Shown: piece after piece, positions 1-30,431 of the stretch
How positions within the stretch are numbered: position 1 is the first letter of the stretch
How the letters are laid out: every line of letters begins with the position of its first letter
Assembly: GCA_016196545.1 (NCBI GenBank)
Contig: JACPXM010000007.1
Location: forward strand, 1-44,074
From: Candidatus Omnitrophota bacterium
GTDB lineage: Bacteria; Omnitrophota; Omnitrophia; Omnitrophales; Aquincolibacteriaceae
Length of the DNA: 44,074 bases
Direction: 5' to 3'
Program-made: the position numbers and the translations under genes
Notes under the pieces: model-generated
Databases searched by the model: none
The model's input: only the letters and a program-made list of their open reading frames with translations
What the model was told of the DNA's origin: nothing

Positions 1-1292
1 GTACTCTTGCAATAATCAAGCTTCATGGGAATAATCCCACGAAAAAGTGCAAGACGGCGGCAAACCTCTGGGAGCGGTGTAAAAGCCAGGATGGACAGTG
101 TCCGTTCAAATTTAGAAACTGAAATCGCCGTTTTACCGCTTTGCGTAAATGCGACGATCGCTCTTGCATCAATGTCTGCCGCAGCATTTTGGGCCGCATG
201 AGCAATGGCACAAATCGGATGGTCCTTGCGTCTAACCATTTTTCTGGGAACCACTTCCTGCAATTGCAGATGCCGCTCGGCTTCAAGGATAATTTCCGTC
301 ATCATACGGACAACTTCAACCGGATATTTCCCGATCGACGTCTCCCCTGAAAGCATGACGGCATCCGTACCATCAAAAACCGCATTGGCCACATCCGATG
401 CTTCCGCACGCGTCGGACGGGGATACTCCATCATTGATTCAAGCATTTGAGTCGCTGTAATCACGGGAAGATAACTTTGATTCGCACGCTCAATCAGTTT
501 TTTTTGGATTACCGGGACCTTCTGGACCCCAAGTTCAATCCCCAAATCACCTCGAGCAATCATGATTCCATCCGCAACAGCAATAATCGCTTCAAGCTGT
601 TCAACCGCTTTGGGCTTTTCAATTTTTGCAATGATGGGTATTTGTTTTCTAAAGGTCTTGAGGCAATCCTGCACTGCTTCAATATCCTGCGCAGTCCGCA
701 CAAAAGAAAGCGCGACATAATCCACCGCTTCGTCGGCCGCAATCTTAAGGACGGCATGATCCTTCTCCGAAAGCGCCGGTAAAGTCATCGGCGCATTCGG
801 AAGATTAATCCCCTTATTCTCACCCAAAATACCCCCGGTCAAAACCTCGCACGTTACTTCCTTGTCACCAACCTCCAGAGCTCTCAGATCCATCAAGCCA
901 TTGTCTAGAAGAACGGGATCACCCTTTTTTACCATACGCGGCAACTCAGTACAGGAGGTTGTAATATGGCACCTTCCATTACTCTTCCCCTCCTGGGAGT
1001 CAGAAACAATAGAAACAATCTGCCCTTTCTTGATCACAATGGGCTGTTGATCCTTCAAGGCGCCAGTGCGAATCCGCGGCCCCTGCAAATCAATGAGTAT
1101 GGGGATCTCTTTGGCGAGAGATTGTGAAATATGACGAATTCGCTTTATCCAATCAAGCAACCCTTCTAAAGAGGTATGCGAGGTATTGATTCTAAGCACA
1201 TCGACACCTTCCCGAATGAATGCTTTTAGAATTTTTTCGGATTCGCAGGCCGGGCCTACGGTCGCCACAATTTTTGTTTTTTTCATGCTCAT
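1..1292 (-). CDS. pyk: Pyruvate kinase (3' end runs off the window; absent from the ORF track)
   Basis: Manual translation from ATG 1292/1286: MKKTKIVATVGPACES...LRINTSH...PIIAKIEKP...DGIMIARGDLGIE...ATQMLESM...PTRAEASDVANAVFDGTDAVMLSGET, the classic pyruvate kinase signatures. Confidence 0.95.
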   Translation of the reverse strand, partial: MSMKKTKIVATVGPACESEKILKAFIREGVDVLRINTSHTSLEGLLDWIKRIRHISQSLAKEIPILIDLQGPRIRTGALKDQQPIVIKKGQIVSIVSDSQEGKSNGRCHITTSCTELPRMVKKGDPVLLDNGLMDLRALEVGDKEVTCEVLTGGILGENKGINLPNAPMTLPALSEKDHAVLKIAADEAVDYVALSFVRTAQDIEAVQDCLKTFRKQIPIIAKIEKPKAVEQLEAIIAVADGIMIARGDLGIELGVQKVPVIQKKLIERANQSYLPVITATQMLESMMEYPRPTRAEASDVANAVFDGTDAVMLSGETSIGKYPVEVVRMMTEIILEAERHLQLQEVVPRKMVRRKDHPICAIAHAAQNAAADIDARAIVAFTQSGKTAISVSKFERTLSILAFTPLPEVCRRLALFRGIIPMKLDYCKS

Positions 1293-1342
1293 CGCATTTT
1301 CCTGACGGCCCATCTTTAAAAGAGGAACGACAACAGCGCTTT

Positions 1343-2578
1343 TCATCGATTGCGGCTGTCTTCTAAAACAGGTTGAGGTACGGGTGTCACCGCCGGTAAA
1401 AGATCCATACATGACCAGCCTTTCTGGACCGCGCGCAGTAACACCAACGCCGATAAAGCGGTTCCGGCAAAAATTAGAAATCCCACTCCGTAAGAACCCA
1501 TGGTCTGTTTAAAAAATCCAAGCAAGGTCGGAAGAAAAAATCCTCCAAGCCCTCCGGCGGCGCCGACAATCCCCGTCATCACCCCGATTTCTTTCTGAAA
1601 CCGTAAAGGGACGAGTTGGAATACGGAACCGTTTCCCATCCCCAAAGCTGCCATCACCAGAAAAATGAGAAACACCGTTGCCGCAAGCGGCGGAAGAAAA
1701 GAAATTCCAAACATCAATAAAGCCACGCATCCAAAGAGAACACTGAGAATCCGGACACCGCCAAAACGGTCGGCCAGATACCCGCCCACCGGACGGATAA
1801 AACTCCCGGCAAACACACAGAGTGCAGTAATTTGGCCGGCCATGACTTTGCTTAAACCAAATTGGTCATAAAAGAAAATTCCAAGGAAACTGGCCATTCC
1901 TACAAAACCGCCGAAAGTAACCCCGTAAAAAAAACAAAACCAGAAAGTATCGGCTTCTTTAAAAACCAAAAAATAATCGGCAAGTTTTTTCGGTTTTGGC
2001 TGCGTAGGACTTTCTTTAGCCAAGAAAATAAAAACCAAAAGCGTGAGGGTCACGGGGATAAGCGCAAGACCAAAAACATTCCGCCATCCCACGATTTCTG
2101 CCAAAACAGGTGCAAATAAAGAAGCAAGAACAGTCCCGCTGTTGCCCGCTCCCGCAATACCTAGTGCCATGCCTTGATGCTCCGCAGGATACCACCGGCT
2201 TGCAAGTGGAAGCGCCACGGCAAAACTGCCGCCAGCGATTCCCAAAAGCAATCCAAAGGCCAGGACGGTTTGAAAATGAGGCGCAAAAAGCCAAATCCCT
2301 AAAAGGGGGGTAAAAACAATAAGCTGCCCCAAAATTCCTGTTTTTTTGGGGCCCAGATGATCGACTAAAAAACCCAGCGGAAGGCGGACCAAGGATCCTC
2401 CGAGAATGGGAACTGCGGCCATAAAACCCTTCTGGGCCGGCGTAAGCCCAAATTCTTTTGAAATATAAACGCCGAGCACGCCCATCAAAACCCACACCAT
2501 AAAACTGATGTCAAAATAAAGAAAAGCAGAAAATAATGTCGGAGGATGCCCGCTTTTTAAAAAATCCTTAATTCTCAT
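1343..2578 (-). CDS. narK: MFS nitrate/nitrite transporter (NarK/NasA, NNP family)
   Basis: About 12 hydrophobic segments; NNP motifs GIAGAGNSG, ALGMGNGSVFQLVP, FYGVTFGGF; lies in the nitrate assimilation cluster. Confidence 0.92.
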   Translation of the reverse strand: MRIKDFLKSGHPPTLFSAFLYFDISFMVWVLMGVLGVYISKEFGLTPAQKGFMAAVPILGGSLVRLPLGFLVDHLGPKKTGILGQLIVFTPLLGIWLFAPHFQTVLAFGLLLGIAGGSFAVALPLASRWYPAEHQGMALGIAGAGNSGTVLASLFAPVLAEIVGWRNVFGLALIPVTLTLLVFIFLAKESPTQPKPKKLADYFLVFKEADTFWFCFFYGVTFGGFVGMASFLGIFFYDQFGLSKVMAGQITALCVFAGSFIRPVGGYLADRFGGVRILSVLFGCVALLMFGISFLPPLAATVFLIFLVMAALGMGNGSVFQLVPLRFQKEIGVMTGIVGAAGGLGGFFLPTLLGFFKQTMGSYGVGFLIFAGTALSALVLLRAVQKGWSCMDLLPAVTPVPQPVLEDSRNR

Positions 2579-2592
2579 AGTTTCGTCTCCTT

Positions 2593-3978
2593 TTAAAAGG
2601 TAAGAACGGTTTGTGTATATAAAAAATTGGCGTCATCATGAGCGCCTGTGTCCTTGGCAAAAGGCCCCGCGAAAAAATGCGAATAACCGAGCATAAGATT
2701 CAAATGCTCAGTAAGTTTGTAAGTGCCCAAAAGATCAAGTTCCTCTCCCAATTGAGTGTCTGCATTCGCATTAGGCGCCCTGAAAGTGCCGCCTGCGGCG
2801 TTAAACCAGGCCGATTCCTTGGCATCCAGAAGGAACCAATGAAAATCTGAGGAAAGCTGAAGCCGGGTATGAGGTTTCACGCTTGTACCCACCATAAAAT
2901 CATTCATGTTTTTGAGAGAGAGAAAATCCATGAATCCATACTTGTTGTGGTTTGTCGGAAAAAGATTATCGAAGGTCTGGGATTTTCCATCGGTCGGATT
3001 GCGGTCGCCGGACGCGTGATTGTATTCGCCGTAAATCCGCGGCGTCCATGGCAGTTTCGACAGTGTATAACCGAGTGCCTGATGAAATGCCCAGGCCGCG
3101 ATTTCATCATGCGACCGGCTGCCAAGTTGAACCGCGTATTCAGTACCGTAATCAAAATCATATTCTTTCCCCTTAAACCGGTTCCCAAATGTGTACTCTT
3201 TAAGGGAACCATGCTCACCCGTCCGTTCCCCTGCGACGGTTCGATCTGTGTTGTCGCGGATAAAAAGAAAAGTGTCCAAGATTTGGCCCATATATTTCCG
3301 GAAAGGTTTCGTGCTGAGATAGATCCCGTAAGAATTGTCGCCATTCTGGGCCTGATCCCACTTTTCTTTTTCCACTTTCACTATGCGTGAGCCAAAAATA
3401 TCCAGTTGCACTTGGGGATTCGGATTAAAAATGAGTTTTAGAGCATCGAAAACACGGGCCGGATTCGTCCAATCAGAAGGACCGACGAAACGCTCATCCC
3501 CATAAGAAAGCACCTGGCGCCCGGCTTTTAAAGTTACGGGAGCCAGATGCCAGGGACTTTTGACCTCCGCAAAAAGCTGGCGAAGATCCAGCCAGTTCAC
3601 AAAGGTATTGGTTTTATCAACCTGGCTTTGAGCGAAGCTATGAGCCTCCTGGCCTTCAACAAAAAAATGCAAGGGCGTCTGGCCGGTATCCGAAAGATAG
3701 GAGACATCCATATTCAAACGATTCCGGAGTAAATGGAGAGAATCGTCTTCATAAGTGTTGTCGTTTAAATTGAAATCATCGCGATATTCGTAACGATAAC
3801 GCGATTGACCACCGATTTTAACTTTAACGCGGCTGTCGAAAAAAAGACGCGACTTAAAGAGGTCGTCGAGCTCTCGATCCAATCGATTAAAGATTTCCGG
3901 TTGTTGGGCTGCCATACAATGTAAAGGGCGGAAGAATATCCCCAAAATCAGCACGATGATGCTTCCCATGCGTTTCAT
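2593..3978 (-). CDS. Outer-membrane beta-barrel, alginate-export (AlgE-like) family; probable nitrate/nitrite porin
   Basis: Signal peptide; RYRYE, GRQVLSYGDERFVG, ASGD...TFDNLFPTNH motifs; C-terminal Phe; RBS AAAGGAGA. Confidence 0.75.
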   Translation of the reverse strand: MKRMGSIIVLILGIFFRPLHCMAAQQPEIFNRLDRELDDLFKSRLFFDSRVKVKIGGQSRYRYEYRDDFNLNDNTYEDDSLHLLRNRLNMDVSYLSDTGQTPLHFFVEGQEAHSFAQSQVDKTNTFVNWLDLRQLFAEVKSPWHLAPVTLKAGRQVLSYGDERFVGPSDWTNPARVFDALKLIFNPNPQVQLDIFGSRIVKVEKEKWDQAQNGDNSYGIYLSTKPFRKYMGQILDTFLFIRDNTDRTVAGERTGEHGSLKEYTFGNRFKGKEYDFDYGTEYAVQLGSRSHDEIAAWAFHQALGYTLSKLPWTPRIYGEYNHASGDRNPTDGKSQTFDNLFPTNHNKYGFMDFLSLKNMNDFMVGTSVKPHTRLQLSSDFHWFLLDAKESAWFNAAGGTFRAPNANADTQLGEELDLLGTYKLTEHLNLMLGYSHFFAGPFAKDTGAHDDANFLYTQTVLTF

Positions 3979-3993
3979 GTTTCTCCTTTTTTC

Positions 3994-4062
3994 ACGAATC
4001 CTACTTTCTGCATCGTTGCAGTAAAATAGAATCGTTTGAAAACATAAACGCCTTTGCTTATG
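3994..4062 (-). promoter_or_regulatory. ANTAR-binding dual-hairpin RNA element #2, upstream of the porin/narK/pyk genes
   Basis: Minus strand: CATAAGC-AAAGGC-GTTTATG (4062-4043) and CTGC-AACGAT-GCAG (4021-4008); both hexaloops have A1/G4. Confidence 0.75.
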
Positions 4063-4108
4063 GGTCGTTCTTCCCTTGTTAGGTTGATTTCCATCATTCC
4101 CTGCAACT

Positions 4109-6307
4109 TTACTCCAGCTTGTAAACCCGTACCGCCGCTTGTTTGTAATTGGGTTCGCGGGAGTAGGGATCGCACATGCTTACTGTTAAATTATTGGCAT
4201 TCGCTTCCGCATAATGAAATGGAATAAAGATTTGGCCTGGAGCGACCGTCTCCGTCACGCGCAAGACGATATGCGAAATCTTTCCGCGTCTGGACTCCAC
4301 GCGAACATAATCCCCGTGCTGGAATTTTAGCTTTGCGGCATCGCGGGCATTCATTTCCACCCAGGCTTCCGGCGACAAATTATTAAGAAGAGGGATTTGT
4401 CCTGTTTTGGTGCGCGTATGCCAATGCTCGACCGTTCTTCCCGTATTGAGCCAAAAAGGATATTCCTCATTCGGAGTTTCCGGAGGCGCCTCATTTTCCA
4501 CCACCCAAAGTTTTGCGCGGCCATCTTGGGTTTGGAAAACTCCATCCTGATAAAGGGGATGGCTTTTGCGGGGATCTCGCGTGGTCTTTTCACCGTAAGG
4601 CCATTGAATACCTCCCAATTTTTCAATCAATTCATAACTCATCCCGGAATAATCGCAAAGTCTGTCGGCAGATACTTTTTTCCATTCTTCAAAAGCATGT
4701 TCCGGTTTTGTCCATCCTGGAAAGAGTCGCTCAGAAACTCCCAACTCTTTGGCAATGGAAAGAAAAATATCGAAATCTGATTTGGCTTCGCCGGGCGGTT
4801 CGACGGCTTTATTGACCTTACTCACCCGCCGTTCTGAATTGGTATAAGTCCCCTCTTTTTCACCCCACACCGCAGCCGGCAGAACAAGATTCGCAATCTC
4901 ACTTGTCGGAATAGGATGATAGCCGTCCTGAACGACAAGAAACTCCAGCCTTTCAAGGACTTCCAAGAGATAATTTTGGTTTGGAAAAGACACAAGAGGG
5001 TTGGTAGCAATAATCCATAATCCTTTGATTTTTTTGCTCAGAACCGCTTCGATAATATCCGGATAGGCTAGTCCTCGGGAGGATGGAATGATTTCCTGCT
5101 CAACCCCCCAAAGTGCCGCGAGTTCAGCGCGATGGCCTGGATCTTCAAATTTACGATATCCGGGAAGGCTCGAGGCAAATCCCGATTCGCGGGTGCCCAT
5201 AGCATTACATTGTCCGGTAATAGAAAAAGGCGAGGCCCCAATCCTACCGACATTGCCGGTGATCAAGGCAAGGTTGCAAATCGTATTCACCGTTACCGTG
5301 CCCTGCGTGCTGTGATTCACGCCCATGGTCCAACCGATGAAAGGAGCTTTGGCTTGAGCGTAAAGCATGGCCACTTTTCGAATCTGCCGGGCCGAAAGGC
5401 CTGTGATTTCACTCACATAATCCGGCGTATATTTTTCAAGATGCTTGCAAAGCTCTTCAAAACCCTGTGTGTGTTTTTCGATATAGGCTTGATTGGCTTT
5501 TCCCGCTTTAATAATCACATGCATGATTCCATTGAGTAGCGCGATGTCCGTCCGTGGCTTTAAAGGAAGAAAGATATCGGCCATCATGGCCGTTTTCGTC
5601 ACACGCGGATCTGCAACAATGACTATTTTCTTACGATTCTTTTCAAGGCGATAACAAAGAATGGGGTGATTGTCCGCAATATTGGCACCGATCAGAAAAA
5701 CCAAATCCGCTTTTTCCAAATCCTCATAATTGCCTGGAGGGCCGTCACTTCCAAAAGATCTTTTATAGCCAGACACTGCGCTGGCCATACAAAGTGTGGT
5801 ATTACCATCATAATTATTGGTGCGAAATCCAAGCCGCACTAACTTTCCGAGGGTATAAAACTCTTCAGTCACAAGCTGCCCGGTGCTGATCACACCAAGG
5901 GCGTCCGGTCCGTAACGGCTTTGAATGGAACGGAATTTTTCCACCAAGGTCTGAAGAGCTGCTTCCCACGTGACTTTCTGAAATTTTCCCTTTCCACCTT
6001 TCAGCAGAGGCCACTTCGCACGATTAGGGGCGGTGATCGCATAATGTTCGGCAAGTCCTTTGGGACAAAGACGGCCTTCATTGACGGGATGGTCCGGGTT
6101 TCCGCGAACGCTCACGGGCTTGCCCTTTTTAACGCCGATAAACATTCCACATCCGACAGAGCAATATCCACAGGTGGTCGACACCCAGTGATCCGGTATT
6201 TTAGCCTTTGCCATATAGCCGAACTGCTCATCAACATCATAGGCATATTTTTCCTTTTGAATATCAATGCCCAGTCGCTTCTTTGTGGAGTTTAAAAATT
6301 TTTTCAA
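4109..6307 (-). CDS. Molybdopterin nitrate reductase catalytic subunit (assimilatory NasA/NasC/NarB type)
   Basis: CGYCSVGC...N-x-GRLCPKG Fe-S motif, DGNTTLCMASA, WTMGVNHS, TGQCNAMGTRE, EKEGTYTNSER, C-terminal LNTGR..HWHT domain; TTG start; no canonical Tat motif. Confidence 0.9.
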   Translation of the reverse strand: MKKFLNSTKKRLGIDIQKEKYAYDVDEQFGYMAKAKIPDHWVSTTCGYCSVGCGMFIGVKKGKPVSVRGNPDHPVNEGRLCPKGLAEHYAITAPNRAKWPLLKGGKGKFQKVTWEAALQTLVEKFRSIQSRYGPDALGVISTGQLVTEEFYTLGKLVRLGFRTNNYDGNTTLCMASAVSGYKRSFGSDGPPGNYEDLEKADLVFLIGANIADNHPILCYRLEKNRKKIVIVADPRVTKTAMMADIFLPLKPRTDIALLNGIMHVIIKAGKANQAYIEKHTQGFEELCKHLEKYTPDYVSEITGLSARQIRKVAMLYAQAKAPFIGWTMGVNHSTQGTVTVNTICNLALITGNVGRIGASPFSITGQCNAMGTRESGFASSLPGYRKFEDPGHRAELAALWGVEQEIIPSSRGLAYPDIIEAVLSKKIKGLWIIATNPLVSFPNQNYLLEVLERLEFLVVQDGYHPIPTSEIANLVLPAAVWGEKEGTYTNSERRVSKVNKAVEPPGEAKSDFDIFLSIAKELGVSERLFPGWTKPEHAFEEWKKVSADRLCDYSGMSYELIEKLGGIQWPYGEKTTRDPRKSHPLYQDGVFQTQDGRAKLWVVENEAPPETPNEEYPFWLNTGRTVEHWHTRTKTGQIPLLNNLSPEAWVEMNARDAAKLKFQHGDYVRVESRRGKISHIVLRVTETVAPGQIFIPFHYAEANANNLTVSMCDPYSREPNYKQAAVRVYKLE

Positions 6308-6319
6308 TGGGCCCCTACC

Positions 6320-7975
6320 TTAGTCGTGAAAAAAAGCCCCCGGCATATTTTTAGGAACCACTGTCACAAAAAATAAATACCTTCCCAAAAATTCTCCAAC
6401 GAGAGAAAAAAGAAAACAAACGAACCCAAGCCCAAGAAAGGCACTCCCCGCCAACGGGCCTGACTGCAAAAAGGCGAACAGCACAAAAGGGGAAATAAAA
6501 GACCCCAACACAAGCGCTGACAGCCGTATGAGAAAAAGCTTTTTGAACCGATGAATCAGAAGAAAGCTTGAGCCGTAAAGTTCATTCGACTCCATCCATT
6601 TAAACGAAAACAGTCTGGCTAGAAGAACGATCATTTGAAAAAAACCAGCCATGGTTGAAACCGCCAGAAATGCAAAAACCGGGGCCTTGGCAGCAAAACT
6701 TAGCGGGCCGGTGATCCGAAGAAAAACATAAACGCCATAAACTAAAAGGGCGAACAAAGGTCCTAAAATAAACCCCGTAAGAAAAAATCTCAGGGGGGTC
6801 CGGATCGTATTCCAGGCCGGTCTCGCAGGAACAAGATAGATTTTGGCGCTCGCATAGACGCCGGCGAGCCCAAAAATAACGACCACGGCACCAAGAAAAA
6901 CTATCGCATCATCGGGAATATTCCATTTCCAAAAATGCTTTGCCAATTCAAGCCCCGCATAAACTCCTCCCGTTTTGGAAAAAAGCGTAAAGAGAAGCAC
7001 TTCTCGCGACAGCCAGGAACGCTTCCACATCCGCAGGGCTTTATACGCATAAAGCGGCCGCCCCAGATGAAAAACAGCCGCAAAAAGCGCGACGCTCGTC
7101 ATCAAAAGCATGCCGACTGCTCCAAAGGGAAGAAAATCTTGAAGCGGTTTCAGAAAACCGATCCACCTTGAAAAAAATTCCAGCAGCCACAGCGTCATAA
7201 AACCTCCGGTGGCGAGCTGAGTCAAAACCGTCATCACGATTAAGGATGTGTGCGGCTTTTCGGGTTCAATGCGATGGCGGTTGGCACGAAGCAAATTTTC
7301 TGGGACATTGTCGGGAATCGTAATCCGAGTTGTTGAAATCGTCATTCTGGAATCCGGGACATGCGGCGCATCCGCTTCCTTGTGATTCTGCCGCCATTCT
7401 TCCACATTCACTTTTTCAATTTGAATGGCTCCTTGGGGACACGCCGCCACACAGGCTGGGAGTTCTCCGGCCTTCAAACGGCTGTGGCACATATCGCATT
7501 TCGTGACAATATTACGTTCAGGATTGTACTGAGGAACACCGTAAGGGCAGTTCCAGCTGCAATAACCGCAACCGATGCATTCTTCGGCTTTATGTTTGAC
7601 AATCCCATCTTCCAGTTTCACATAGGCATCTGTTGGACAACCTGTCAGGCATGCCGGATCAAGACAATGATTGCATGCCATGGAAAGATGAAAGCGTTTC
7701 GTATCCGGGTAAATACCTCCCTCCATTTCTCCGACCCGGCGCCAATTCACCGTGGCAGGATTGTTGTTCTGTTCGTTACATGCGACGACACAACATTGAC
7801 ATCCGATACAGAGGGTCATATCAAAGTGAAAGCGATATTGTTCCCCCTTCTTCAGCGGTTCTGCAGGGATGAGATTTTTCGGTGAGTAATAACCGTCTTT
7901 ACTGACACGGTTTTTAAGCGGCAGCTCACTTGAGTCCAGCAAATCAATCAAATTAAATTCTTCTGTTACGCTCAT
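6320..7975 (-). CDS. Fused 4x[4Fe-4S] electron-transfer subunit (DmsB-like) and DmsC/NrfD-type membrane anchor
   Basis: CIGCQCCVVAC, CNHCLDPACLTGCP, CIGCGYCSWNCP, KCDMCHSR...PACVAACP, followed by ~8 TM segments with HLGRP, SWLSRE and final EFLGRYLFF. Confidence 0.85.
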   Translation of the reverse strand: MSVTEEFNLIDLLDSSELPLKNRVSKDGYYSPKNLIPAEPLKKGEQYRFHFDMTLCIGCQCCVVACNEQNNNPATVNWRRVGEMEGGIYPDTKRFHLSMACNHCLDPACLTGCPTDAYVKLEDGIVKHKAEECIGCGYCSWNCPYGVPQYNPERNIVTKCDMCHSRLKAGELPACVAACPQGAIQIEKVNVEEWRQNHKEADAPHVPDSRMTISTTRITIPDNVPENLLRANRHRIEPEKPHTSLIVMTVLTQLATGGFMTLWLLEFFSRWIGFLKPLQDFLPFGAVGMLLMTSVALFAAVFHLGRPLYAYKALRMWKRSWLSREVLLFTLFSKTGGVYAGLELAKHFWKWNIPDDAIVFLGAVVVIFGLAGVYASAKIYLVPARPAWNTIRTPLRFFLTGFILGPLFALLVYGVYVFLRITGPLSFAAKAPVFAFLAVSTMAGFFQMIVLLARLFSFKWMESNELYGSSFLLIHRFKKLFLIRLSALVLGSFISPFVLFAFLQSGPLAGSAFLGLGFVCFLFSLVGEFLGRYLFFVTVVPKNMPGAFFHD

Positions 7976-8367
7976 TCTTCAACCGGATTGGAAACTTGAG
8001 AATTTTGATCCTGCCCCGAAAGATCACATTCCTGGTAAGACGCCTCTTCAAATGCAAGATAAATTTCGTTTCTCGCCACTTTTACCGGAAATGTTTTGAC
8101 CCGCCCGGTTCCGCCACTGAGCGCGCAGCCGTTTTCCAAATTGATTTTCCAATTATGCAGCGGGCAGAAAACATTTTTTCCAGCCACGATGCCATCCGCC
8201 AAAGGACCGCCCTTATGCGGGCATTGATTCTCAACCGCAAGATATTCCTCTCCCAAATTAAAAAGAGCTACGACGTGCTGGCCATATTGAACCTGCCGCC
8301 CTTCTTTTTCTGGAATAGCTCCTACCCCCGCGACTCGAAACCATTTGATTTGTTTTGTGCCGTTCAT
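7972..8367 (-). CDS. nirD: NAD(P)H nitrite reductase small Rieske subunit
   Basis: CPHKGGPL...CPLHNW Rieske motif; start at ATG 8367 overlaps the nirB stop (ATGA). Confidence 0.9.
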   Translation of the reverse strand: MNGTKQIKWFRVAGVGAIPEKEGRQVQYGQHVVALFNLGEEYLAVENQCPHKGGPLADGIVAGKNVFCPLHNWKINLENGCALSGGTGRVKTFPVKVARNEIYLAFEEASYQECDLSGQDQNSQVSNPVEE

Positions 8368-10805
8368 GACACACTTCCAATCAAAGCTTCCGCTTCCTTT
8401 GGAAGCACAAAATCCTTGAATTGCATGGGATGAACGGGTTTTGAGGCCTCTCCCCACGGATTCACAACTTTAGCTCTGGCCCTGGCCAAACGATCGAGCA
8501 GGCCTTTTTTTGTTTCCTCGGAAGCCAGGACTGTTTCGCGACGGATTTTTTCGAGGCCCACTCGCACCACAAAATCATAAGTCCGTTCGATGTACTCTCC
8601 ATTTTCACGATAATATTGAAAAAAGAGCAGTGCGGCCTCCAAAGCCTCTTCGGTTGTTTTGACAGTCACTAAAATATCCGCAGCCCGAACGATTTTTCCT
8701 GCCGCACCGCCGATGACAACCTGCCATCCGCCCTCCATTCCTACGAGCCCAATATCTTTGACCGTTGCTTCAGCACAGTTTCTTGGGCAACCCACCACCC
8801 CCATTTTGACTTTCGCTGGCGTGTAAAGGCCTTCCAAAAGAGTTTCGAGTTTGATTCCGGTCTCGATCGAGTTTTGAGTTCCGTAGCGGCAGAAATCCGT
8901 TCCCACACAGGATTTGACCATTCGCACAGCCTTGGCATACGCATGCCCGGATTTCATACCAAGATCCGCCCATACCTTGGGGAGATCCTCTTTTTTAATT
9001 CCGAGAAGGTCAATGCGCTGACTGCCCGTCACCTTGACCATTGGGACTTTGTATTTTTCCGCCACGTCGGCAATTTTGCGCAATTGTTCCGGACTTGTTA
9101 CGCCGCCATGCATGCGTGGAATCACAGAAAAAGTCCCGTCCCTCTGAATGTTCGCGTGCACGCGATCATTGATAAATCGAGCCGAGCGGTCTTCTTTGTG
9201 ATCTCCACAGTGAACTTCATCCACAATAAAACTTAAGGCGGGTTTACAAAAAGAACAACCGATGGCATTTCCGTAAATATCTAAAACATCCTGCACGGAT
9301 TTTAGTTTCTGCGTTTCAATCATCGTCCGGAGCTGCTCTTTGGGGAAAGGGACGCAGGCACATAACGTTTCCTTTTTCTCTTCCTGAAATTCAGAACCCA
9401 GTGCGGCCACCAAAATATCCTGAACAAGGCCGGCACAGGTGCCGCAACCCGAAGAAGCTTTCGTGCAGGCTTTCACTTGGGAAACAGTTTTACAGTCTTG
9501 ATCTTTGATCGCAGAAAGAATTTGTCCCTTCGAAACACCAATACATCCGCAAATGGTATCGGTATCCGCCCGCGACATCACATCCGAGGGAGATCCGCTA
9601 GCCGCCACTGACTCCCCAAAAAGAAGCCCTTTTCTCCCTTTGCTGATCAATTCCTTTTTTCGCATTAATTCAAGCAGCTTGTTTGCATCGGAGGCATCCC
9701 CAATCAAAATAGTTCCAATCACCCGGTCATGTTGAAACACAATTTTTTTATAAATACCCAACCCCTGATCTTGGTAAGCCGCGATTTCTTTGTCCGGTCC
9801 ATCCGCTTTAAAATCTCCGGCAGAGAAAAGTTCGATTCCCATAATTTTTAGTTTGGTTGCCAAAACGGAACCTTCATAAACCATCCCTTTGTCTCCCGTC
9901 ATAGTTGCTGCCAGCACTTTCCCTTGGTCATAAAGAGGCGCTACAAGACCGTAAACTTTGCCCCGGTGTTCAACGCATTCGCCAACCGCAAAAATACTCG
10001 GATCGTTTGTTTCCATCATGTCGTTCACAACGATTCCACGATTGACTTCTAAACCCGCTTTTTTTCCAAGTTCGACATTGGGCCGTATGCCGCACGCGAT
10101 CACAACCATATCGGTCTCGACCTGAGAGCCGTCTTTAAACAGAACCCCTTGAACATTTTCCTCCCCTAAAATCTGAGTCGTGTTTTTATTCAAAAGGATT
10201 GAAATCCCTAGTTTCTCAATCTCACGCTTGAGAAAATTTCCTCCAACTTCATCGAGCTGCACATCCATAAGCCGGTCCAGCAAATGCACAACAGTAACGG
10301 GTACTTTCTGATTCGAAATTCCGCGCGCAGCTTCAAGCCCCAAAAGGCCGCCGCCAATCACTAAAGCATGTTTCGAGGTTTTGCAGGCAGCGAGAATATT
10401 TTCCGTGTCCGCCATATTGCGGAAAGTAAACACACCTTTTTTATTAACTCCTTCAATAGGCGGAATGAAAGGATTGCTGCCGGTCGCTAAAAGCAAAAGA
10501 TCATATGAAAACGTTCGGCCATCTGCGGTATGAATAACTTTATTTTTAGGATCGACATCAATGACTTTAGCTTCCAAACAAAGCATAATTTCATTTTGCT
10601 CATACCATTCCTTACTATTAATGTAGATCTCGTTCAAATTTTTCTCGCCGGCAAGAACGGAGGAAAGGAGAATCCGGTTATAGTTGTAATAAGATTCTTC
10701 ACTTAAAACAGTGATTCTGAAATTGGGTTTTCTTTTCAGAATCTGATCCACGCAAGCAATGCCGGCCATTCCATTACCAACAACTATTAAATGTTTTTGT
10801 TCCAT
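8364..10805 (-). CDS. nirB: NAD(P)H nitrite reductase large subunit
   Basis: VVGNGMAG, YNRILLS, IGGGLLGLEAA, two BFD-like domains, ERVHANIQ-like DRVHANIQRDGT, KSCVGTDFCRYG, GCPRNCAE. Confidence 0.95.
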   Translation of the reverse strand: MEQKHLIVVGNGMAGIACVDQILKRKPNFRITVLSEESYYNYNRILLSSVLAGEKNLNEIYINSKEWYEQNEIMLCLEAKVIDVDPKNKVIHTADGRTFSYDLLLLATGSNPFIPPIEGVNKKGVFTFRNMADTENILAACKTSKHALVIGGGLLGLEAARGISNQKVPVTVVHLLDRLMDVQLDEVGGNFLKREIEKLGISILLNKNTTQILGEENVQGVLFKDGSQVETDMVVIACGIRPNVELGKKAGLEVNRGIVVNDMMETNDPSIFAVGECVEHRGKVYGLVAPLYDQGKVLAATMTGDKGMVYEGSVLATKLKIMGIELFSAGDFKADGPDKEIAAYQDQGLGIYKKIVFQHDRVIGTILIGDASDANKLLELMRKKELISKGRKGLLFGESVAASGSPSDVMSRADTDTICGCIGVSKGQILSAIKDQDCKTVSQVKACTKASSGCGTCAGLVQDILVAALGSEFQEEKKETLCACVPFPKEQLRTMIETQKLKSVQDVLDIYGNAIGCSFCKPALSFIVDEVHCGDHKEDRSARFINDRVHANIQRDGTFSVIPRMHGGVTSPEQLRKIADVAEKYKVPMVKVTGSQRIDLLGIKKEDLPKVWADLGMKSGHAYAKAVRMVKSCVGTDFCRYGTQNSIETGIKLETLLEGLYTPAKVKMGVVGCPRNCAEATVKDIGLVGMEGGWQVVIGGAAGKIVRAADILVTVKTTEEALEAALLFFQYYRENGEYIERTYDFVVRVGLEKIRRETVLASEETKKGLLDRLARARAKVVNPWGEASKPVHPMQFKDFVLPKEAEALIGSVS

Positions 10806-10835
10806 TTTAGGCTCCCTCGTTCCCTATGAGCTTTT

Positions 10836-10881
10836 AAAAGCAAAAAGGCGTTCAACGAATCTATCCGCTGAACGCCTTTGC
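10836..10881 (-). terminator. Intrinsic terminator in the nirB leader (attenuator)
   Basis: Minus strand GCAAAGGCGTTCAGCG-GATAGATT-CGTTGAACGCCTTTTTGCTTTT: long stem followed by U-tract. Confidence 0.85.
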
Positions 10882-10915
10882 TCAACTTTTGAACTGGAAC
10901 GCCGTTGCCCCAGTT
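10869..10915 (-). promoter_or_regulatory. ANTAR-binding dual-hairpin antiterminator element #1
   Basis: P1 AACTGGGGC-AACGGC-GTTCCAGTT and P2 TGAGC-AAAGGC-GTTCA, A1/G4 hexaloops; P2 overlaps the 5' arm of the terminator; adjacent to an ANTAR gene. Confidence 0.88.
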
Positions 10916-10953
10916 TTTCAAATTTTAAAAACGGGTTTTACTTGCTTGTTCGA

Positions 10954-11667
10954 CTAATTCGCAATTTCCTCCGATAAAATAATTGCTTCCGCAATATCCT
11001 TCAAAGAATGGCCTTTATCCATGCTCTGTTTTTGGAGTATCCTATAGGCTTCTGCCTCACTGATGGAGTGCCTCTTAATCAAAATACCTTTGGCACGCTC
11101 AATCCGCTTACGGGCTTCAAGTGCTTCAACTGCGGTAATCTTCTCTGTTAAAAGATTTGTGTTTTCAATCGCGACCGCGGCCTGATTGGCAACCCCAACG
11201 AGAAGCTGAATTTCCTCTTCGCCAAATTCATGTTCCGTTGTTGTATAACAGTTTAGGACCCCAATCACCCGGTTTTTTATCATCATGGGAACCGAAACAA
11301 GTGACCGTAAGCCCTCTGTTTTTGCAATTTCCGGATATTTGTAACCGCTTTCCGCGGTAACATCGCGTACTGTAATCGGAACTTTTTTCTGAACAACCCT
11401 TCCGACGACACTCTCACCGACTTTAATCGGAGGCTTGGTACGGTAATGCTCACTTAAACTTTGGGTGGCTTTAATCACAAGCTCCTGTTTTTCTTCATCC
11501 AATAACATGAGTGAACAAATTTTAGATCCCATGAGGTCTGCCGTCATTCCCACCACAAGCAAAAGAATTTCTTCAACGTAGCGGTTGGACGTAATAGCAC
11601 GGCTAACTTCATAAAGGAGATCGAATCCTTTATGCTTTTTTGACTTGAGGCCATCATATTCAGTCAT
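10954..11667 (-). CDS. GAF + ANTAR transcription antiterminator
   Basis: GAF (CSLMLLD...GESVVG...SLVSVPM...IGVLNCY...AAVAIEN) followed by ANTAR signature RKRIERAKGILIK...EAEAYRILQKQSMD...LKDIAEAII. Confidence 0.9.
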   Translation of the reverse strand: MTEYDGLKSKKHKGFDLLYEVSRAITSNRYVEEILLLVVGMTADLMGSKICSLMLLDEEKQELVIKATQSLSEHYRTKPPIKVGESVVGRVVQKKVPITVRDVTAESGYKYPEIAKTEGLRSLVSVPMMIKNRVIGVLNCYTTTEHEFGEEEIQLLVGVANQAAVAIENTNLLTEKITAVEALEARKRIERAKGILIKRHSISEAEAYRILQKQSMDKGHSLKDIAEAIILSEEIAN

Positions 11668-11816
11668 CGCTCACTATGGACCAGCTTTTCTGCTCAAATA
11701 CTTTTAATCTTTCAAAAGTCTTCACAAAAAGGTAACTAAAAAGGACATTTTTGTAAGAGAAGTCTGCTCTTTTCTCTCGTATGACTATTTATTGTAGGGA
11801 GTATGCCCCCTGATAT

Positions 11817-11831
11817 ACATAAATCATGCCA
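11817..11831 (-). promoter_or_regulatory. Possible sigma54 promoter of the GAF-ANTAR / nitrate operon
   Basis: TGGCAT-GATTT-ATGT: good -24 box, non-consensus -12 box; AT-rich upstream DNA. Confidence 0.35.
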
Positions 11832-12197
11832 AATAATTTTATTTTTAGCCTTATCATCCTAAATCAAGGCCTTTTTCTTTCTGCCCCCCCCATTGAACAA
11901 CAACGATTTCAAGAACCTGCCTTATTGATCTCTTAAACACTTTGAGGGCAGGTTTCTGGGCAATTCCCAAATCAGTGGAAATAATTTCCTTTCTATAGGA
12001 AAGCACATGGAAATAGTTATTTTTTGCCTGGATAACTAAATATAATTATCTTTTGGAAGGAAATCAAAAGGTTGAAAAAAAAGTAAGAATACAACGCGGA
12101 AGCTAGGTCTTAGTTTTTGTAACTTCTTATTCATCAATGCCATACATAACAAGTCCGCATGTTTGGAATAAAAATCATACGGAGCTTTGTCCATCGG

Positions 12198-12248
12198 TCA
12201 GCCAAAAGTTTTAATGCTGACTTTTAATGGTTTATCTTGTGTGTTCAT
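12198..12248 (-). pseudogene. Short MiaB-like N-terminal remnant, copy 2 (MNTQDKPLKVSIKTFG*, then PMD)
   Basis: Resembles the methylthiotransferase N-terminal motif IxTFGCQMN with TGA at the Cys position; homologous to 13709-13768. Confidence 0.55.
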
Positions 12249-12306
12249 GAGTAGTTAGTAAAATTTATTGAGTTTGTCGAGCCGATGAATTCACATGACT
12301 GTGACT

Positions 12307-13086
12307 TCACTTAAGAATTCTAACAATTTCCGCAAGAAAAACATCTACATCATGTGAAAAATTGACTTGGGTTCTGTTCGGCAATACTTCTTTTTTTCTG
12401 ATCTGGCAATGAAGGTGCTGATCTGCGATTTTCCGAGATGAATTCTCAAGATGCTGCATTGATTCTCGAAATGATTTGGATCCACCGTAATTAGAAGCGA
12501 CCTGAGCAAAGGTTTTCTGTCCAAAAATCGGCGGCACATGATCAATGACTGCTCGAGTCAGTTGAATGACTGATATATAAGATTCGTTTTGAAATGCTAG
12601 ATTTATTTCTTTTAAAATCTGGAGAAGCCTTGATAAATCAAAATCAGAATGCCTTAAAGCCTTTAACTGCTGCATTCGATCGTAATTGATAAAAGAATCG
12701 TGAGAAGGCCCTTTAAGTTGTCCGTGTGGTTGTTCTGGCAAATCACCTGATTCATAAATACCGATTGCTTTATTTAGAGCATCTAAAATACTATCTGGCG
12801 GAACAGCGTAAGGACCGCCTTCGTTGTGAAACATATCGTCTATCAAATCCATGCTGAAAAGGAACCCACCAGCTACAGGTGCTGCCCTACCAGACATACG
12901 GGTAGGCACATTAGCATTACTCAGATATTTTTTCATTTTCGTCGATTGCCTTGTAATCGCTTCTCTAATTGTTTTTAGCTGTTCTTCGGAGACGGAACTA
13001 TAGTGATCGAATCTATGTTGAAAATACAAAGAGACATTTTTTTTAAAATTATCTATTTCTGAGATTATCTTTTTATATTCAGTCAT
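12307..13086 (-). CDS. Hypothetical protein with a helical C-terminal domain, possibly HEPN-like
   Basis: 259-aa ORF in AT-rich DNA; RAVIDHVPPIFG...SRKIADQHLH contains an R-x5-H / R-x7-H pattern; start overlaps the upstream stop (ATGA). Confidence 0.6.
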   Translation of the reverse strand: MTEYKKIISEIDNFKKNVSLYFQHRFDHYSSVSEEQLKTIREAITRQSTKMKKYLSNANVPTRMSGRAAPVAGGFLFSMDLIDDMFHNEGGPYAVPPDSILDALNKAIGIYESGDLPEQPHGQLKGPSHDSFINYDRMQQLKALRHSDFDLSRLLQILKEINLAFQNESYISVIQLTRAVIDHVPPIFGQKTFAQVASNYGGSKSFRESMQHLENSSRKIADQHLHCQIRKKEVLPNRTQVNFSHDVDVFLAEIVRILK

Positions 13087-13634
13087 TTGGCGTTAGCTGG
13101 GTCAACTCGTTCTTTCAAAAAGGTATTCTGAAAGTCTTCGATCCAATCAGGAAACATTACCGCATTATATTCGTTCTTATCTTCAAAGCTTTCATACCGA
13201 AGAGCCTTGATATGCTTTCCATAAAACTTTTTCCATATGCCTTCCCTGTCTTCGTTTATGTATGGCTTCGGAACACCCTCTGCAGCACATATCGAATCCA
13301 TATCTATAGCGTCAATACTGGTCTTTAAGGTCAGCTTCCAAAGAACTTTGTTTTTGGCATCACTCTCTTGAAGAGCGACATGAACTTTATACGTAACGCA
13401 AGTACTCGCAGTCCCTACGCCGATTGCCTGCCCATTCTCATATAACGATGCAAACTCCTTGGGACCAGGATATTGTGAAGGTTGTGAGGAAAACCTGGAG
13501 TATAGACCGCTTGGAATAACTGGGTCTATACCGTCATCCACAACTCTATAAAAAATTGTCCCCGCTTGCATAGTCATTTTGTGTAGGTTTAAGTCAATCT
13601 TATCGATATCGATGTCGCTCAAATTCTTATGCAT
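13083..13634 (-). CDS. RES-domain-like protein (putative NAD+-degrading toxin fold)
   Basis: Ordered motifs GTIFYRV, SRFS, ALQES, ALRYES, NAVMF match RES R-E-S spacing; start chosen at ATG 13634 (GGGAAG upstream), alternative 13712. Confidence 0.6.
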   Translation of the reverse strand: MHKNLSDIDIDKIDLNLHKMTMQAGTIFYRVVDDGIDPVIPSGLYSRFSSQPSQYPGPKEFASLYENGQAIGVGTASTCVTYKVHVALQESDAKNKVLWKLTLKTSIDAIDMDSICAAEGVPKPYINEDREGIWKKFYGKHIKALRYESFEDKNEYNAVMFPDWIEDFQNTFLKERVDPANAK

Positions 13635-13708
13635 AGGTCTTCCCAATAAACGCCGCAACCCCTTCCGCCAAAGCTTGGCAAACCTGTATTGCATTCGAAA
13701 TATGATGG

Positions 13709-13768
13709 TCATCCGAAAGTTTTGATACTGTCACGCAGCGGCCTAATTCCCTTATTCTGGACAATCAT
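13709..13768 (-). pseudogene. Short MiaB-like N-terminal remnant, copy 1 (MIVQNKGIRPLRDSIKTFG*)
   Basis: Follows the O-antigen ligase stop and a GAGGAGG; same SIKTFG*P codon string as 12198-12248. Confidence 0.55.
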
Positions 13769-13794
13769 TTTTCTATTTTGATTCCTCCTCACTT

Positions 13795-15006
13795 TCATGG
13801 ATATTTTGAGTAAGCCAAGCTAAGGCCGGCCAGATACCAAAATGCCATCACCGACGGGGCATTGTGCATCACGGTATCGACCATGGCAAAGAGCAAAAAA
13901 TTGAGGGCGCCGGCAAAAAGCCCGAGGCGGAGGATGCGTGCGGATTCCGGCTCCTGAGGATTTTTTCGAAAATGAATTGCGAAAAGCCGCAGCAAGAATA
14001 AAACAAAACAGAGAAGGCCCGGGAGCCCGATTTCCGCGGCCATTTGCAAATAGCCATTGTGCGCATAGTAATTTCTGACACGCCAGTTTTGTGTCATGTC
14101 GTATTTGGTATGTGCCTTTGCATAGGTGTTGATTCCGGTTCCAAAGACCGGGCGGGCTTTAATGACTTGAAGGGCGCGGTCCCAAAGCACCTGGCGCTCA
14201 ACCACCGACTGCTCCGCGCCGTGCTGATCCAAATGGATCATCATTCTCTTGGGAACAAAGGTCACAAGCACCGTACAGACAATGATCCCTGCGCCCAGCC
14301 ATTTCCATTTCCTCAAATAAATAAGCATCAAAAAAAGCCCGGCACCAAAGGCCAAGACCGCCCCTCGGGATCGTGTCAAGAATAATAGGGTGCAAGCCAA
14401 AAAAAATAAAATCCACGAAATCCACAACGCTGGCCCTTTTTTACCCTTTGTCTTATGCAGCGCCAATGCAAAAAGGAACGGGGCTGTGCTGATGAGATAA
14501 GAAGCAAATAACCCATAGCTTTTAAAGGATGCTGAAACACGCGGCCGCGAATCCATGATTTCAGCCATATAGCCGCGAAGAAGGTCCGTCCCCGCAAAAT
14601 ACTGATAACATCCGTCCGCGACAAGCACACCATAAAAGAGAAGAAACACGGTTTCAAGCACGGGCCGCCGACCAGCCTCTGCAAAAAATTCGGCAGCCAT
14701 CCAAAAAATCGCAACGTGCTGGAGCATTTTCAAAAGGCCGCGGAAACTTTCAGAGGGAAAATCCGAAAGAACTGCGGAAAAAACCGCTGCCACAAACCAA
14801 AACCCGAGAAAGAGCTTAATTTGGGGATCCAGGCGAATCCTATAATCCTTCTTCTTTCTTTTCCAAACCAGGAAGAAAAAAAGCGCGAGGACAAAGGCAA
14901 TTTCGACAAGCGCGGTGGAAAACGCAAGACCCGCCCAAAGCGCAAGAAGCGAGGCGGTCATTAAATTGATTTGCAGCTTTGCAGGTTTTATCCAAACCGT
15001 GGTCAT
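13795..15006 (-). CDS. O-antigen ligase (Wzy_C/WaaL) family membrane protein
   Basis: Multi-TM; LTRSRGA, R..LW..AL..IK.RP.FGTG, AHNGYLQMAAEIGLPG motifs. Confidence 0.88.
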   Translation of the reverse strand: MTTVWIKPAKLQINLMTASLLALWAGLAFSTALVEIAFVLALFFFLVWKRKKKDYRIRLDPQIKLFLGFWFVAAVFSAVLSDFPSESFRGLLKMLQHVAIFWMAAEFFAEAGRRPVLETVFLLFYGVLVADGCYQYFAGTDLLRGYMAEIMDSRPRVSASFKSYGLFASYLISTAPFLFALALHKTKGKKGPALWISWILFFLACTLLFLTRSRGAVLAFGAGLFLMLIYLRKWKWLGAGIIVCTVLVTFVPKRMMIHLDQHGAEQSVVERQVLWDRALQVIKARPVFGTGINTYAKAHTKYDMTQNWRVRNYYAHNGYLQMAAEIGLPGLLCFVLFLLRLFAIHFRKNPQEPESARILRLGLFAGALNFLLFAMVDTVMHNAPSVMAFWYLAGLSLAYSKYP

Positions 15007-15100
15007 GAGCCTCCATTTTCGCCAAACTTTCCTCGCTGTCAATCCTCGATTTGCCTAGTATTTTACATTTTGACTGTTTCTCAAGAACCTGCCTCCTCGC

Positions 15101-15191
15101 CCTCCCCCACACCCGGTGTGTCGACGGTTCCTACACCCAACCACCCTGACACCCGGTGTGAAATGCTTTTACACACCGGGTGTAGGAGAGG
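15101..15191. repeat. REP-like intergenic repeat cluster
   Basis: ACACCCGGTGTG at 15109-15120 and 15149-15160, inverted copy at 15172-15183; TCCTACACCC (15129-15138) also pairs with 15178-15187. Confidence 0.65.
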
Positions 15192-15304
15192 TGCGGCTAT
15201 TGTCAACAACCTGCTGCCGTCAGATAGACGCCCATGCAGGGTTTTTCTTGAAGCACAATGAACACAAGCTTTATAATGACAGTATTTTAACCAAGGAGGA
15301 CCGT

Positions 15305-16318: not shown

Positions 16319-16320
16319 AC

Positions 16321-16343
16321 CAAAAGGTACCAGGTACCTTTTG
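16321..16343. repeat. Short palindrome between convergent genes (REP-like or bidirectional terminator)
   Basis: CAAAAGGTAC-CAG-GTACCTTTTG. Confidence 0.6.
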
Positions 16344-16347
16344 CATT

Positions 16348-29189: not shown

Positions 29190-29209
29190 AGCACGCCTCT
29201 CGTCCAGAC

Positions 29210-29503
29210 TCAGATGTTTAATTTTTTTTTGAGCCAGTTGTTTTCCACCTGCATCCGGCCCACGTTTTTGTAAAGATCCTCGATCAACTCTTTTTGGTCC
29301 TTCATCTTTTCGGCTCCGCCGGAAGGACTTGAGAAAAGCTCGGCCAGCCGGTCCTTGACCACGGCTTTCCAGGTGTTGATCTGCGAGACGTGCACTTCGT
29401 ATTCGGCGGCAAGCTCGGCCATTGTTTTGTCGCCCCTCAACGCCGCCAGAGCCACTTTCGCTTTAAATTCATCCGGAAATTTCTTGCGCATTTGGACCTC
29501 CAT
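29210..29503 (-). CDS. IS3 transposase OrfA (HTH)
   Basis: EFKAKVAL.AL....T.AELA..YEVH..QI..WK; ends WLKKK at the frameshift site. Confidence 0.93.
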   Translation of the reverse strand: MEVQMRKKFPDEFKAKVALAALRGDKTMAELAAEYEVHVSQINTWKAVVKDRLAELFSSPSGGAEKMKDQKELIEDLYKNVGRMQVENNWLKKKLNI

Positions 29504-29567
29504 TTATTGGGCCTGATTATATCTAACTTCAGGCTACTTTTTGGTCCAGTTTTCCGGGGCCACTATA

Positions 29568-30422: not shown

Positions 30423-30431
30423 AAGTTAAAC

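Follow-up and report, generated by a model that had tools for sequence, protein, structure and literature searches.

The window analysed in this study is the whole 44,074-nt contig JACPXM010000007.1 (hereafter C2) of a metagenome-assembled genome (MAG) from a Candidatus Omnitrophota bacterium (G000 in our numbering; 1.2 Mb in 57 contigs, 72% complete). On its minus strand lie two stop-terminated mini open reading frames (ORFs), called here stub 1 and stub 2, that resemble the beginning of miaB, a gene for a tRNA-modifying methylthiotransferase. We propose, with a probability of about 0.85, that both stubs are attL-type scars of a stack of mobile elements inserted serially by large serine recombinases (LSRs) into the codon of the first cysteine of miaB (IKTFG/C, the slash marking the break). 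This proposal starts from what is directly observed, namely the anatomy of the junctions, their recurrence in relatives, the overlap of an LSR gene with miaB, a complete element in one relative and cassette ends that are conserved around differing cargo. The two stubs and the gene next to them are as follows.

13795..15042, minus strand: Wzy_C/O-antigen-ligase-like gene (Pfam PF04932, E 5e-27), with its stop 26 nt before the ATG of stub 1
13709..13768, minus strand: stub 1, 19 codons, ATG at 13768 and TGA at 13711-13709, MIVQNKGIRPLRDSIKTFG then stop
12198..12248, minus strand: stub 2, 16 codons, ATG at 12248 and TGA at 12200-12198, MNTQDKPLKVSIKTFG then stop

The stubs have in common the codons for S-I-K-T-F-G-stop-P (AGT/AGC, ATC/ATT, AAA, ACT, TTC/TTT, GGA/GGC, TGA and CCA/CCG). 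They differ five times in this run, every time at a third position, as a preliminary description made from the window alone had noticed. A 23-nt degenerate pattern covering both stubs is found twice in the window, against a mean of 0.00 and a largest count of 0 in 100 dinucleotide-preserving shuffles. The putative crossover dinucleotide TG lies at 13711-13710 in stub 1 and at 12200-12199 in stub 2; both stubs continue with ACC, and the TGA stop of stub 1 is completed by the first base of the next arm. With a looser pattern (I-K-T-F-G-TGN), the whole assembly yields three places, which are the two stubs and the intact start of miaB on another contig, C50. A still looser peptide scan of the assembly added only short, chance-like hits without the extended motif.

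This genome has two UPF0004 methylthiotransferases. The copy on contig C4 begins like RimO, and the copy on C50 (C50:75613-77151, minus strand, 512 aa) is MiaB, with a TIGR01574 score of 442 bits against a cut-off of 355. It is the only miaB of the genome, and its start, MSDETVMPKKENRKTVVCIKTFGCQMN (...CIKTFGCQMN), bears out the likeness to MiaB that had been seen in the stubs. The preliminary description had suggested looking for an intact miaB past pyk, beyond the left edge of the window. A miaB with a related start does exist, but it lies on C50, which shares no end overlap with the window contig. The same description had found no integrase in the window; this holds, and an LSR lies instead elsewhere in the genome, on C50, where it overlaps the miaB start. 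This LSR (C50:77073-78737, 554 aa) contains the domains Resolvase (PF00239, 6.4e-35), Recombinase (PF07508, 7.4e-22) and Zn_ribbon_recom (PF13408, 1.5e-9), and in NCBIfam it scores best, though below the cut-off in each case, with CcrB, CcrC and XisF. Its gene overlaps the start of miaB by 79 nt and stops a few bases past the Cys codon. The first 24 codons of miaB are thus inside the end of the LSR gene, and miaB is still full length and in frame. C50 ends 2.9 kb further up, within a gene 80% identical to a winged-helix (wHTH) gene of about 400 aa beside the LSR of genome G004; this core gene is also found beside the LSR in G036, G021 and G022. Four more LSR homologues are encoded on C45, C52 and C4 of the same genome, at 24-33% identity to the miaB-linked enzymes. 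A search with the LSR for related loci in a collection of genome contigs returned only 6.

The association of an LSR with miaB recurs among relatives. miaB is present in 36 of 41 genomes surveyed and one locus each was read in 30 of them, of which five have less than 400 nt upstream and are not judgeable for an LSR. An LSR ORF runs into the start of miaB in 11 of the 30 (our own genome, G022, G004, G021, G016, G019, G023, G030, G036, G002 and G011), and LSR fragments stand at this start in two more, G012 and G024. Several miaB genes lie at contig ends, as expected of a variable spot. We also scanned for stubs with a pattern made of the K-T-F-G codons, TGA and CC, the reversed pattern serving as control. 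The junction KTFG-TG/ACC, which breaks both copies of the window at the Cys codon, was found at 15 sites within the order (12 of 96 genomes) and at 22 sites in a sample of the phylum (19 of 251 genomes), the control giving 1 hit. All 15 order-level sites consist of a short ORF ending in I or L, KTFG and stop, followed by DNA unrelated to miaB. At these sites the miaB-like arm ends in GGN TG and the foreign arm begins with ACC; the bases flanking TG vary and TG is constant. Serine integrases make a 2-nt staggered cut at a central dinucleotide, and we infer from the variable flanks that TG is the 2-nt crossover.

The most complete picture comes from G030 (G030:C4), where a single contig holds both junctions of an element, separated by 12.2 kb, and the LSR lies beside the junction with miaB. 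This element contains, besides the LSR, a 317-aa gene, MarR regulators, a resistance-nodulation-division (RND) efflux set and DoxX. The LSRs of G030 and G004 have the same three domains as the C50 enzyme. In G030 the start arm, read as its reverse complement, agrees with the far arm at 16 of 27 positions (a hand count, without control), and such an imperfect dyad is what an attP site would show. Tandem stubs, a search for which had been suggested together with their cargo and a linked recombinase, are present in G037, where they lie 2 kb apart with an AbiEi/AbiEii pair between them, and in G020 (L080, G020:C90 4093 and 4229), where two cut-off miaB starts are 136 nt apart. The recurring stubs, the LSR overlapping the miaB start and the complete element of G030 are all in favor of the idea, already put forward in the preliminary description, of serial insertions at the 5' end of miaB with replacement starts.

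The far arms fall into classes. Class A is found behind stub 1, and class B, the commoner ACC-N-N-TGG kind, behind stub 2, whose arm is most like that of G019. A conserved ORF in the far arms was considered and rejected, because only a stretch of about 25-30 nt of DNA is similar and does not amount to a gene. The first cut-off start of G020 keeps its Cys codon and is then followed by a far arm of another kind that does not begin with ACC, and the miaB site is therefore used by at least one more arm class.

Could the mini-ORFs be genuine small genes or regulatory upstream ORFs, including the case of a TGA read as a residue? The TGA of stub 1 does overlap the ATG (ATGA) that opens a mechanically called ORF of 209 aa, and the stubs are similar at the protein level. 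We nevertheless hold this explanation to be very improbable. The sequence after TGA is unrelated in both stubs and at the 15 sites of relatives, arm classes aside; the 512-aa MiaB encoded on C50 begins with the stub peptide; the ATG at 13712 is inside a conserved non-coding arm; and Rfam gave no family in 10500-16500 at E <= 0.1. Extremely improbable, in our opinion, is a resemblance due to chance or to local duplication of a miaB fragment without any recombinase. The shuffles predict 0.00 matches, the identical dinucleotide break at 22 sites in 19 genomes compares with one control hit, and the far arms are conserved across genomes, so that little remains for this explanation beyond the shortness of the repeat (23 nt with 4 differences).

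We propose that an incoming element would bring, together with its attachment site, a new 5' leader and N-terminus to replace those of miaB, and a far arm beginning with ACC; in LSR-bearing elements, the replacement start would overlap the end of the recombinase gene. Strand exchange at TG would then join the start of the element to the body of miaB, and the gene would therefore stay whole. The previous start would be joined to the far arm, where TG plus A would make a stop and leave a stub of 16-19 codons. The break at TG in the Cys codon, together with its recurrence and with the LSR at miaB, thus leads us to regard each stub as a putative attL-type junction, composed of an old miaB start, the TG crossover and the far arm of the inserted element. 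As each element would repair the gene that it cuts, insertions could pile up at no cost for the host.

The left arms of the stubs, compared over 32 nt (these identities and that of the 27-position dyad are hand counts), suggest where the severed starts came from. That of stub 1 agrees at 27 of 32 nt with the LSR-linked miaB start of G021 (L032) and at 17 of 32 with the start on C50, so that stub 1 appears to be an LSR-borne replacement start of miaB and not the native one. The left arm of stub 2 agrees at 27 of 32 nt with the working miaB start of G018 (L040), which stands there behind a cassette of the class-A type described below. Stub 2 would accordingly be the own replacement start of such a cassette, cut by the following insertion. 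Since the left arm of stub 1 fits LSR-borne starts, at least three insertions would have taken place and the first element would later have been lost.

The islet between the stubs spans about 1.46 kb and contains two ORFs. It is AT-rich, with a GC content of 0.35-0.40 against about 0.47-0.50 around it, and its genes have a GC content at third codon positions (GC3) of 0.30 and 0.41, where the mean of the genome is 0.512 (standard deviation 0.048, 718 long ORFs). It is made up of the following parts.

13657..13709, minus strand: class-A far arm (P' arm), left end of the cassette, kept in G018 and G092
13083..13631, minus strand: cassette gene 1, RES-like, 182 aa, with its ATG at 13631 beyond the conserved arm (the mechanical ORF of 209 aa starts at 13712)
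12307..13086, minus strand: cassette gene 2, 259 aa, its N-terminal half helical and variable, its C-terminal domain (about 145-259) conserved and HEPN-like
12192..12300, minus strand: class-A right end, a conserved 5' leader and replacement start that includes stub 2

Both ends are conserved elsewhere. By blastn, the stub and its class-A arm match G018 at 83% over 88 nt and G092 at 85% over 41 nt, and the right end matches the same two genomes at 83% over 66 nt and 72% over 113 nt. The arm and the leader/start enclose 1.46 kb with two genes here, 1.08 kb with one 297-aa gene in G018 and 0.5 kb with one 113-aa gene in G092. The same ends around differing cargo therefore indicate a unit made of arm, cargo, leader and start that is present in three genomes, from two families, carries unrelated cargo and has no recombinase. 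No LSR similarity was found inside the class-A cassettes and no LSR frame overlaps their start. Units bounded by directly oriented attachment-site scars and lacking a recombinase are present at 12198-13709 of the window, in G018, in G092, in G037 (with AbiE) and in G032, and none of them shows LSR similarity in its interior. The islet thus reads as a small imported cassette without recombinase. Conserved ends around unrelated cargo in three genomes further suggest that an LSR supplied in trans moved it. When metagenome contigs were scanned twice for the class-A arm, no further match appeared, and only three copies are therefore known.

One would also wonder whether the class-A islet could be the deletion remnant of a complete LSR element, the ends shared with G018 and G092 being simply inherited. 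Such remnants are seen in the neighborhood of stubs: an internally deleted LSR lies right beside the stub of G092, the stub of G019 is preceded by a weak LSR C-terminal remnant (E 0.004), and the empty metagenome scans, which leave three copies only, are also in line with this idea. In G092 (L081, G092:C56 7098-7427), the LSR gene is cut to its first 109 codons and almost directly fused to the stub; the fragment is 61% identical to the N-terminus of the G030 enzyme and looks like a snapshot of recombinase loss from a stack. However, the stub stands between this fragment and the cassette. All three copies have kept both ends (72-85% identity) around unrelated cargo of 0.5, 1.1 and 1.5 kb in two families, and they show neither an LSR frame over their start nor LSR similarity inside. 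A deletion remnant is thus unlikely, although it keeps some weight.

Another hypothesis would be that class-A units form a cassette system of their own, a mirror image of the LSR elements, which enters the attR site of a resident element by an excision-type reaction. The class-A replacement start is 84% identical over 56 nt to a stub on G018:C85 that lies directly behind a chromosomal TPR gene. As the class-A start resembles a native start in this way, a host-type arm and the far arm would together form an attL-like site on the circular form of a cassette. Insertion would leave an attP-like junction, as stub 1 looks, and an attB-like working start. If this were true, the miaB start of Omnitrophota would be an integron-like platform run by a serine recombinase, which gathers toxin and defence cassettes of one or two genes and, here, perhaps the nitrate-assimilation genes too. 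We consider this hypothesis a long shot, and we keep to a cassette moved in trans by an LSR within a serially built stack.

Concerning the cargo of the cassette, the 182-aa protein has no direct Pfam hit, and neither it nor 5 near relatives gave a RES hit at E <= 5. A profile search collected 32 representatives of its family. Across 24 aligned sequences, E90 and S149 do not vary and R47 hardly does, and 8 of the 24 wider-family members match Pfam RES (PF08808) with a best E of 6.5e-8. The structural model is poor, with a predicted local distance difference test (pLDDT) value of 53, and its fold matches are weak; MbcT (Z 3.5, 110 residues aligned) and the Pseudomonas Xre-RES complex (Z 3.0, 114 aligned) are the sole near-full-length ones. 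Sequence profiles of the PDB gave no match for the family. Among the 251 genomes it occurs in G000, G032 and G198 only, and the copies other than that of the window's cassette have neither a HEPN partner beside them nor a stub.

The 259-aa protein has 316 homologues, most of which match its C-terminal half only, fused to varied N-termini. R218, D222 and H226 are invariant in 32 aligned sequences. Compared with the HEPN motif R-x(4-6)-H, the invariant R218-H226 pair has a spacing of x7, and H224 (x5) is the majority residue only. An AlphaFold2 model reached a pLDDT of 88, and exhaustive structure alignment of residues 145-259 placed HEPN proteins in the top rows: 2hsb (Z 8.9), AbiA 8oz7 (Z 8.5) and 1ufb (Z 8.3), over 110-111 residues, bearing in mind that Z under about 13 is common for helical bundles. 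Foldseek against the PDB returned nothing for this model at E <= 0.001. PADLOC, PHROGs and NCBIfam gave no match for either islet protein, and Pfam none for the 259-aa protein. We read the RES-like and HEPN-like pair as a predicted toxin or defence-type module. This agrees with the AbiE genes of the G037 cassette and with the cargo of G018, which gives a weak TIR/deoxyribosyltransferase-like signal.

The window has a second small patch of foreign appearance, at 28350-30851, which contains an IS3-family transposase (rve, HTH_21; 28350-29189) and, beside it, an AT-rich stretch with a DUF5683-like ORF (29529-30422, GC3 0.37) and a HepT-like HEPN RNase toxin gene (30432-30851).

The order of the stubs, the islet and the ligase end is not an artefact of this MAG alone, since a groundwater run, which may be the source sample, yielded an independent 2413-nt Logan contig that spans 12089-14501 with one difference. 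A second Logan contig covers 10861-12067. Further along, between the ligase and a deoxyhypusine-synthase-like gene, a perfect hairpin with a 12-bp stem lies at 15110-15183. Its 12-nt arm has 14 copies in the assembly, as a dispersed REP-like (repetitive extragenic palindromic) repeat, and groundwater runs show there a depth spike of 22 against about 5, with many loose ends. The adjacency of ligase and miaB that the preliminary description had expected in relatives was not borne out: miaB is within 1.5 kb at 0 of their 19 ligase loci, and the deoxyhypusine-synthase-like gene and the islet genes are absent from these loci.

In the miaB sense, the window would thus read ligase, stub 1, class-A cassette, stub 2 and the arm of a next element, and the matching other end would stand at the end of C50, with the wHTH gene of about 400 aa, the LSR, a third start and the intact miaB. 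The simplest history is that an LSR element first gave miaB the start that is now stub 1. The class-A cassette would then have been inserted at the Cys codon of that start and would have severed it. The body of the first element would have been lost, the ligase stop being now 26 nt from stub 1. A class-B element would finally have been inserted, turning the start of the cassette into stub 2; its other end would be the LSR-miaB junction of C50, or would have been so before a rearrangement.

Several observations weigh against this account. The stubs and the LSR-miaB pair are on different contigs and no contig-end overlap of at least 12 nt joins C2 to C50, whose continuity we infer. C50 lacks the N-terminal third of the ~400-aa core gene, which no other contig of the assembly supplies, and the pyk of G004 matches no contig of this assembly but C2. 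No LSR remnant was found by similarity search between the ligase-like gene and stub 1, and deletion of the first element must therefore be assumed. Contigs of four groundwater runs (one study, depth 3-7) contain neither a joint that skips the cassette nor a circular form; there is thus no sign of present-day excision, which says little, as contigs drop rare forms. In G004, G021, G022, G023 and G036, no attL stub was found within 5.6-18 kb upstream of the LSR, whether the search used the peptide pattern or the arm consensus with up to 3 mismatches allowed. Some elements would therefore be large, old or differently bounded. A weak stub candidate at position 8571 of L079 was unconvincing. Upstream of the LSR and the ~400-aa core gene, G004, G022 and G021 (L070, L078, L079) share an NTP-transferase, a class II ribonucleotide reductase, an HlyD-like gene, a glycosyltransferase and OEP. 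In these three stubless loci, either the left junction has decayed or the recombinases are long-resident. A last unfavorable point comes from the genes that lie beyond stub 2.

11734..12198, minus strand: class-B far arm and first 460 nt of the next element, with a 52-aa ORF (12036-12194) of no known family
3..11667, minus strand: GAF-ANTAR regulator, nirB, nirD, Fe-S/DmsC-like subunit, assimilatory nitrate reductase, porin, major facilitator superfamily (MFS) transporter and pyk, named from Pfam and NCBIfam and running off the contig

The class-B arm resembles those behind stubs in G019, G020, G037 and others, and homology to the nitrate-cluster region of G022 starts only at 11733. The nitrate block is syntenic in G004, G022, G024, G026 and G038, away from miaB and with no stub or LSR in the 10.9-20 kb read. 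This counts against the stack as a whole and also against the idea that the stack is continuous and that the nitrate-assimilation cluster and pyk are cargo between stub 2 and the C50 LSR. A further 18 kb on each side of the block in G004 contains no LSR either. Moreover, pyk is a housekeeping gene, and the join of the cluster to C50 is missing.

On the other hand, the cluster starts 460 nt behind the far arm, in a stretch confirmed by the two Logan contigs, and the LSR elements of relatives have genes of metabolism or transport as cargo. nirB has a patchy distribution (7 of 41 genomes), and the proteins of the cluster are 72-87% identical across genera, against 64-67% for MiaB, 58% for ribonucleotide reductase and 55-58% for ordinary pyk. 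G004 has two copies of pyk, of which the one beside its nitrate cluster is 67% identical to that of the window, and the block is flanked differently in G000 and in G004. The genes from pyk to nirB all have a GC3 of 0.445-0.481, against 0.52-0.60 across the stubs and the genome mean of 0.512, but this shift amounts to only about one standard deviation. Altogether, we give the cargo hypothesis somewhat less than an even chance, and the cluster may be cargo of the stack or ordinary chromosome brought there by a rearrangement. If it is cargo, nitrate and nitrite assimilation would have reached this organism through the miaB hot spot.

The second pyk copy of G004 (G004:C107:21352-22647) has an internal TAA; the cluster-side copy is intact and closer to the window pyk. 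Elsewhere in the window, at 25619-27505, a 628-aa ORF fuses an aldo/keto reductase domain to a C-terminal chlorite-dismutase-like domain.

If the proposed stack of LSR insertions is correct, the Cys codon of miaB would be a landing pad by which uncultivated Omnitrophota with small genomes acquire accessory genes, and the order in which insertions took place could be read from the stub scars. With their conserved ends, the recombinase-less cassettes point to an inexpensive vehicle for toxin and defence genes. Should the nitrate cluster be cargo, the same pad would also move core nitrogen metabolism between genera. The target is moreover short, well-defined and natural, in a near-universal gene, and may interest those who look for new serine integrases.

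Parallels can be drawn with several known systems. Integrons stack small, promoter-poor cassettes beside a recombinase gene by means of a tyrosine integrase (IntI) and folded attC sites. Class-A units are likewise small and promoter-poor, hold one or two genes but no recombinase of their own, and are stacked at one site beside a recombinase gene. The likeness is an analogy only: the genes read beside miaB include no IntI-type or other tyrosine integrase, and no attC site was seen, although no search aimed at attC was made. SCCmec and other SCC elements at rlmH (orfX) rely on Ccr recombinases and form composite arrays in which some units lack ccr genes. Ccr-like LSRs are common to both systems, whereas the SCC target is the 3' end of rlmH, two recombinases take part and no start is rebuilt. 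SXT at prfC is a case similar to the islands found at dusA.

These dusA islands and prophages also have a tRNA-modification gene as target, whose 5' end they replace by their own sequence on insertion, and rimO of Polaromonas is listed as a target alongside (PMC4482086). They rebuild the 5' end of their target as is proposed here; they differ by their tyrosine integrases, where an LSR is found here, and by longer identity segments (PMC4482086). The ssrA islands of Dehalococcoides, with their serine integrase DsiB, are repeat-bounded and stand in tandem at a single-copy gene; some have no integration module and were proposed to be cis-mobilizable (PMC3146451). Tandem units, integrase-less units and metabolic cargo are features that they share with the miaB elements, and their integrase is CcrB-like, CcrB and CcrC being also among the best NCBIfam rows of the C50 LSR, below cut-off. 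In contrast, their target is the 3' end of an RNA gene, with no coding start to be rebuilt, and they have a second small recombinase, DsiA (PMC3146451).

The closest published case found is the phage JC1, in which a predicted serine recombinase lies next to attP and which inserts in the 5' end of rimO, a paralogue of miaB; an ATG from the phage keeps RimO in frame with a changed N-terminus, and in related prophages the integrase gene overlaps rimO (PMC9144972). Like the miaB elements, JC1 thus combines a serine recombinase, insertion in the first codons of a gene for a MiaB-family methylthiotransferase and the supply of an in-frame start. It differs in being a phage, in its target rimO and in its 18-bp overlap region, and neither stacking nor recombinase-less cassettes were described for it (PMC9144972). 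The miaB elements, for their part, have no phage genes in the parts read, their shared core is a coding motif plus TG, and their insertions are stacked. Our literature search returned no paper on this miaB system of Omnitrophota. Judged from its sequence, the miaB stack appears to be a combination of known kinds: a serine-integrase island that rebuilds the 5' end of its target, accretion in tandem, and units without recombinase.

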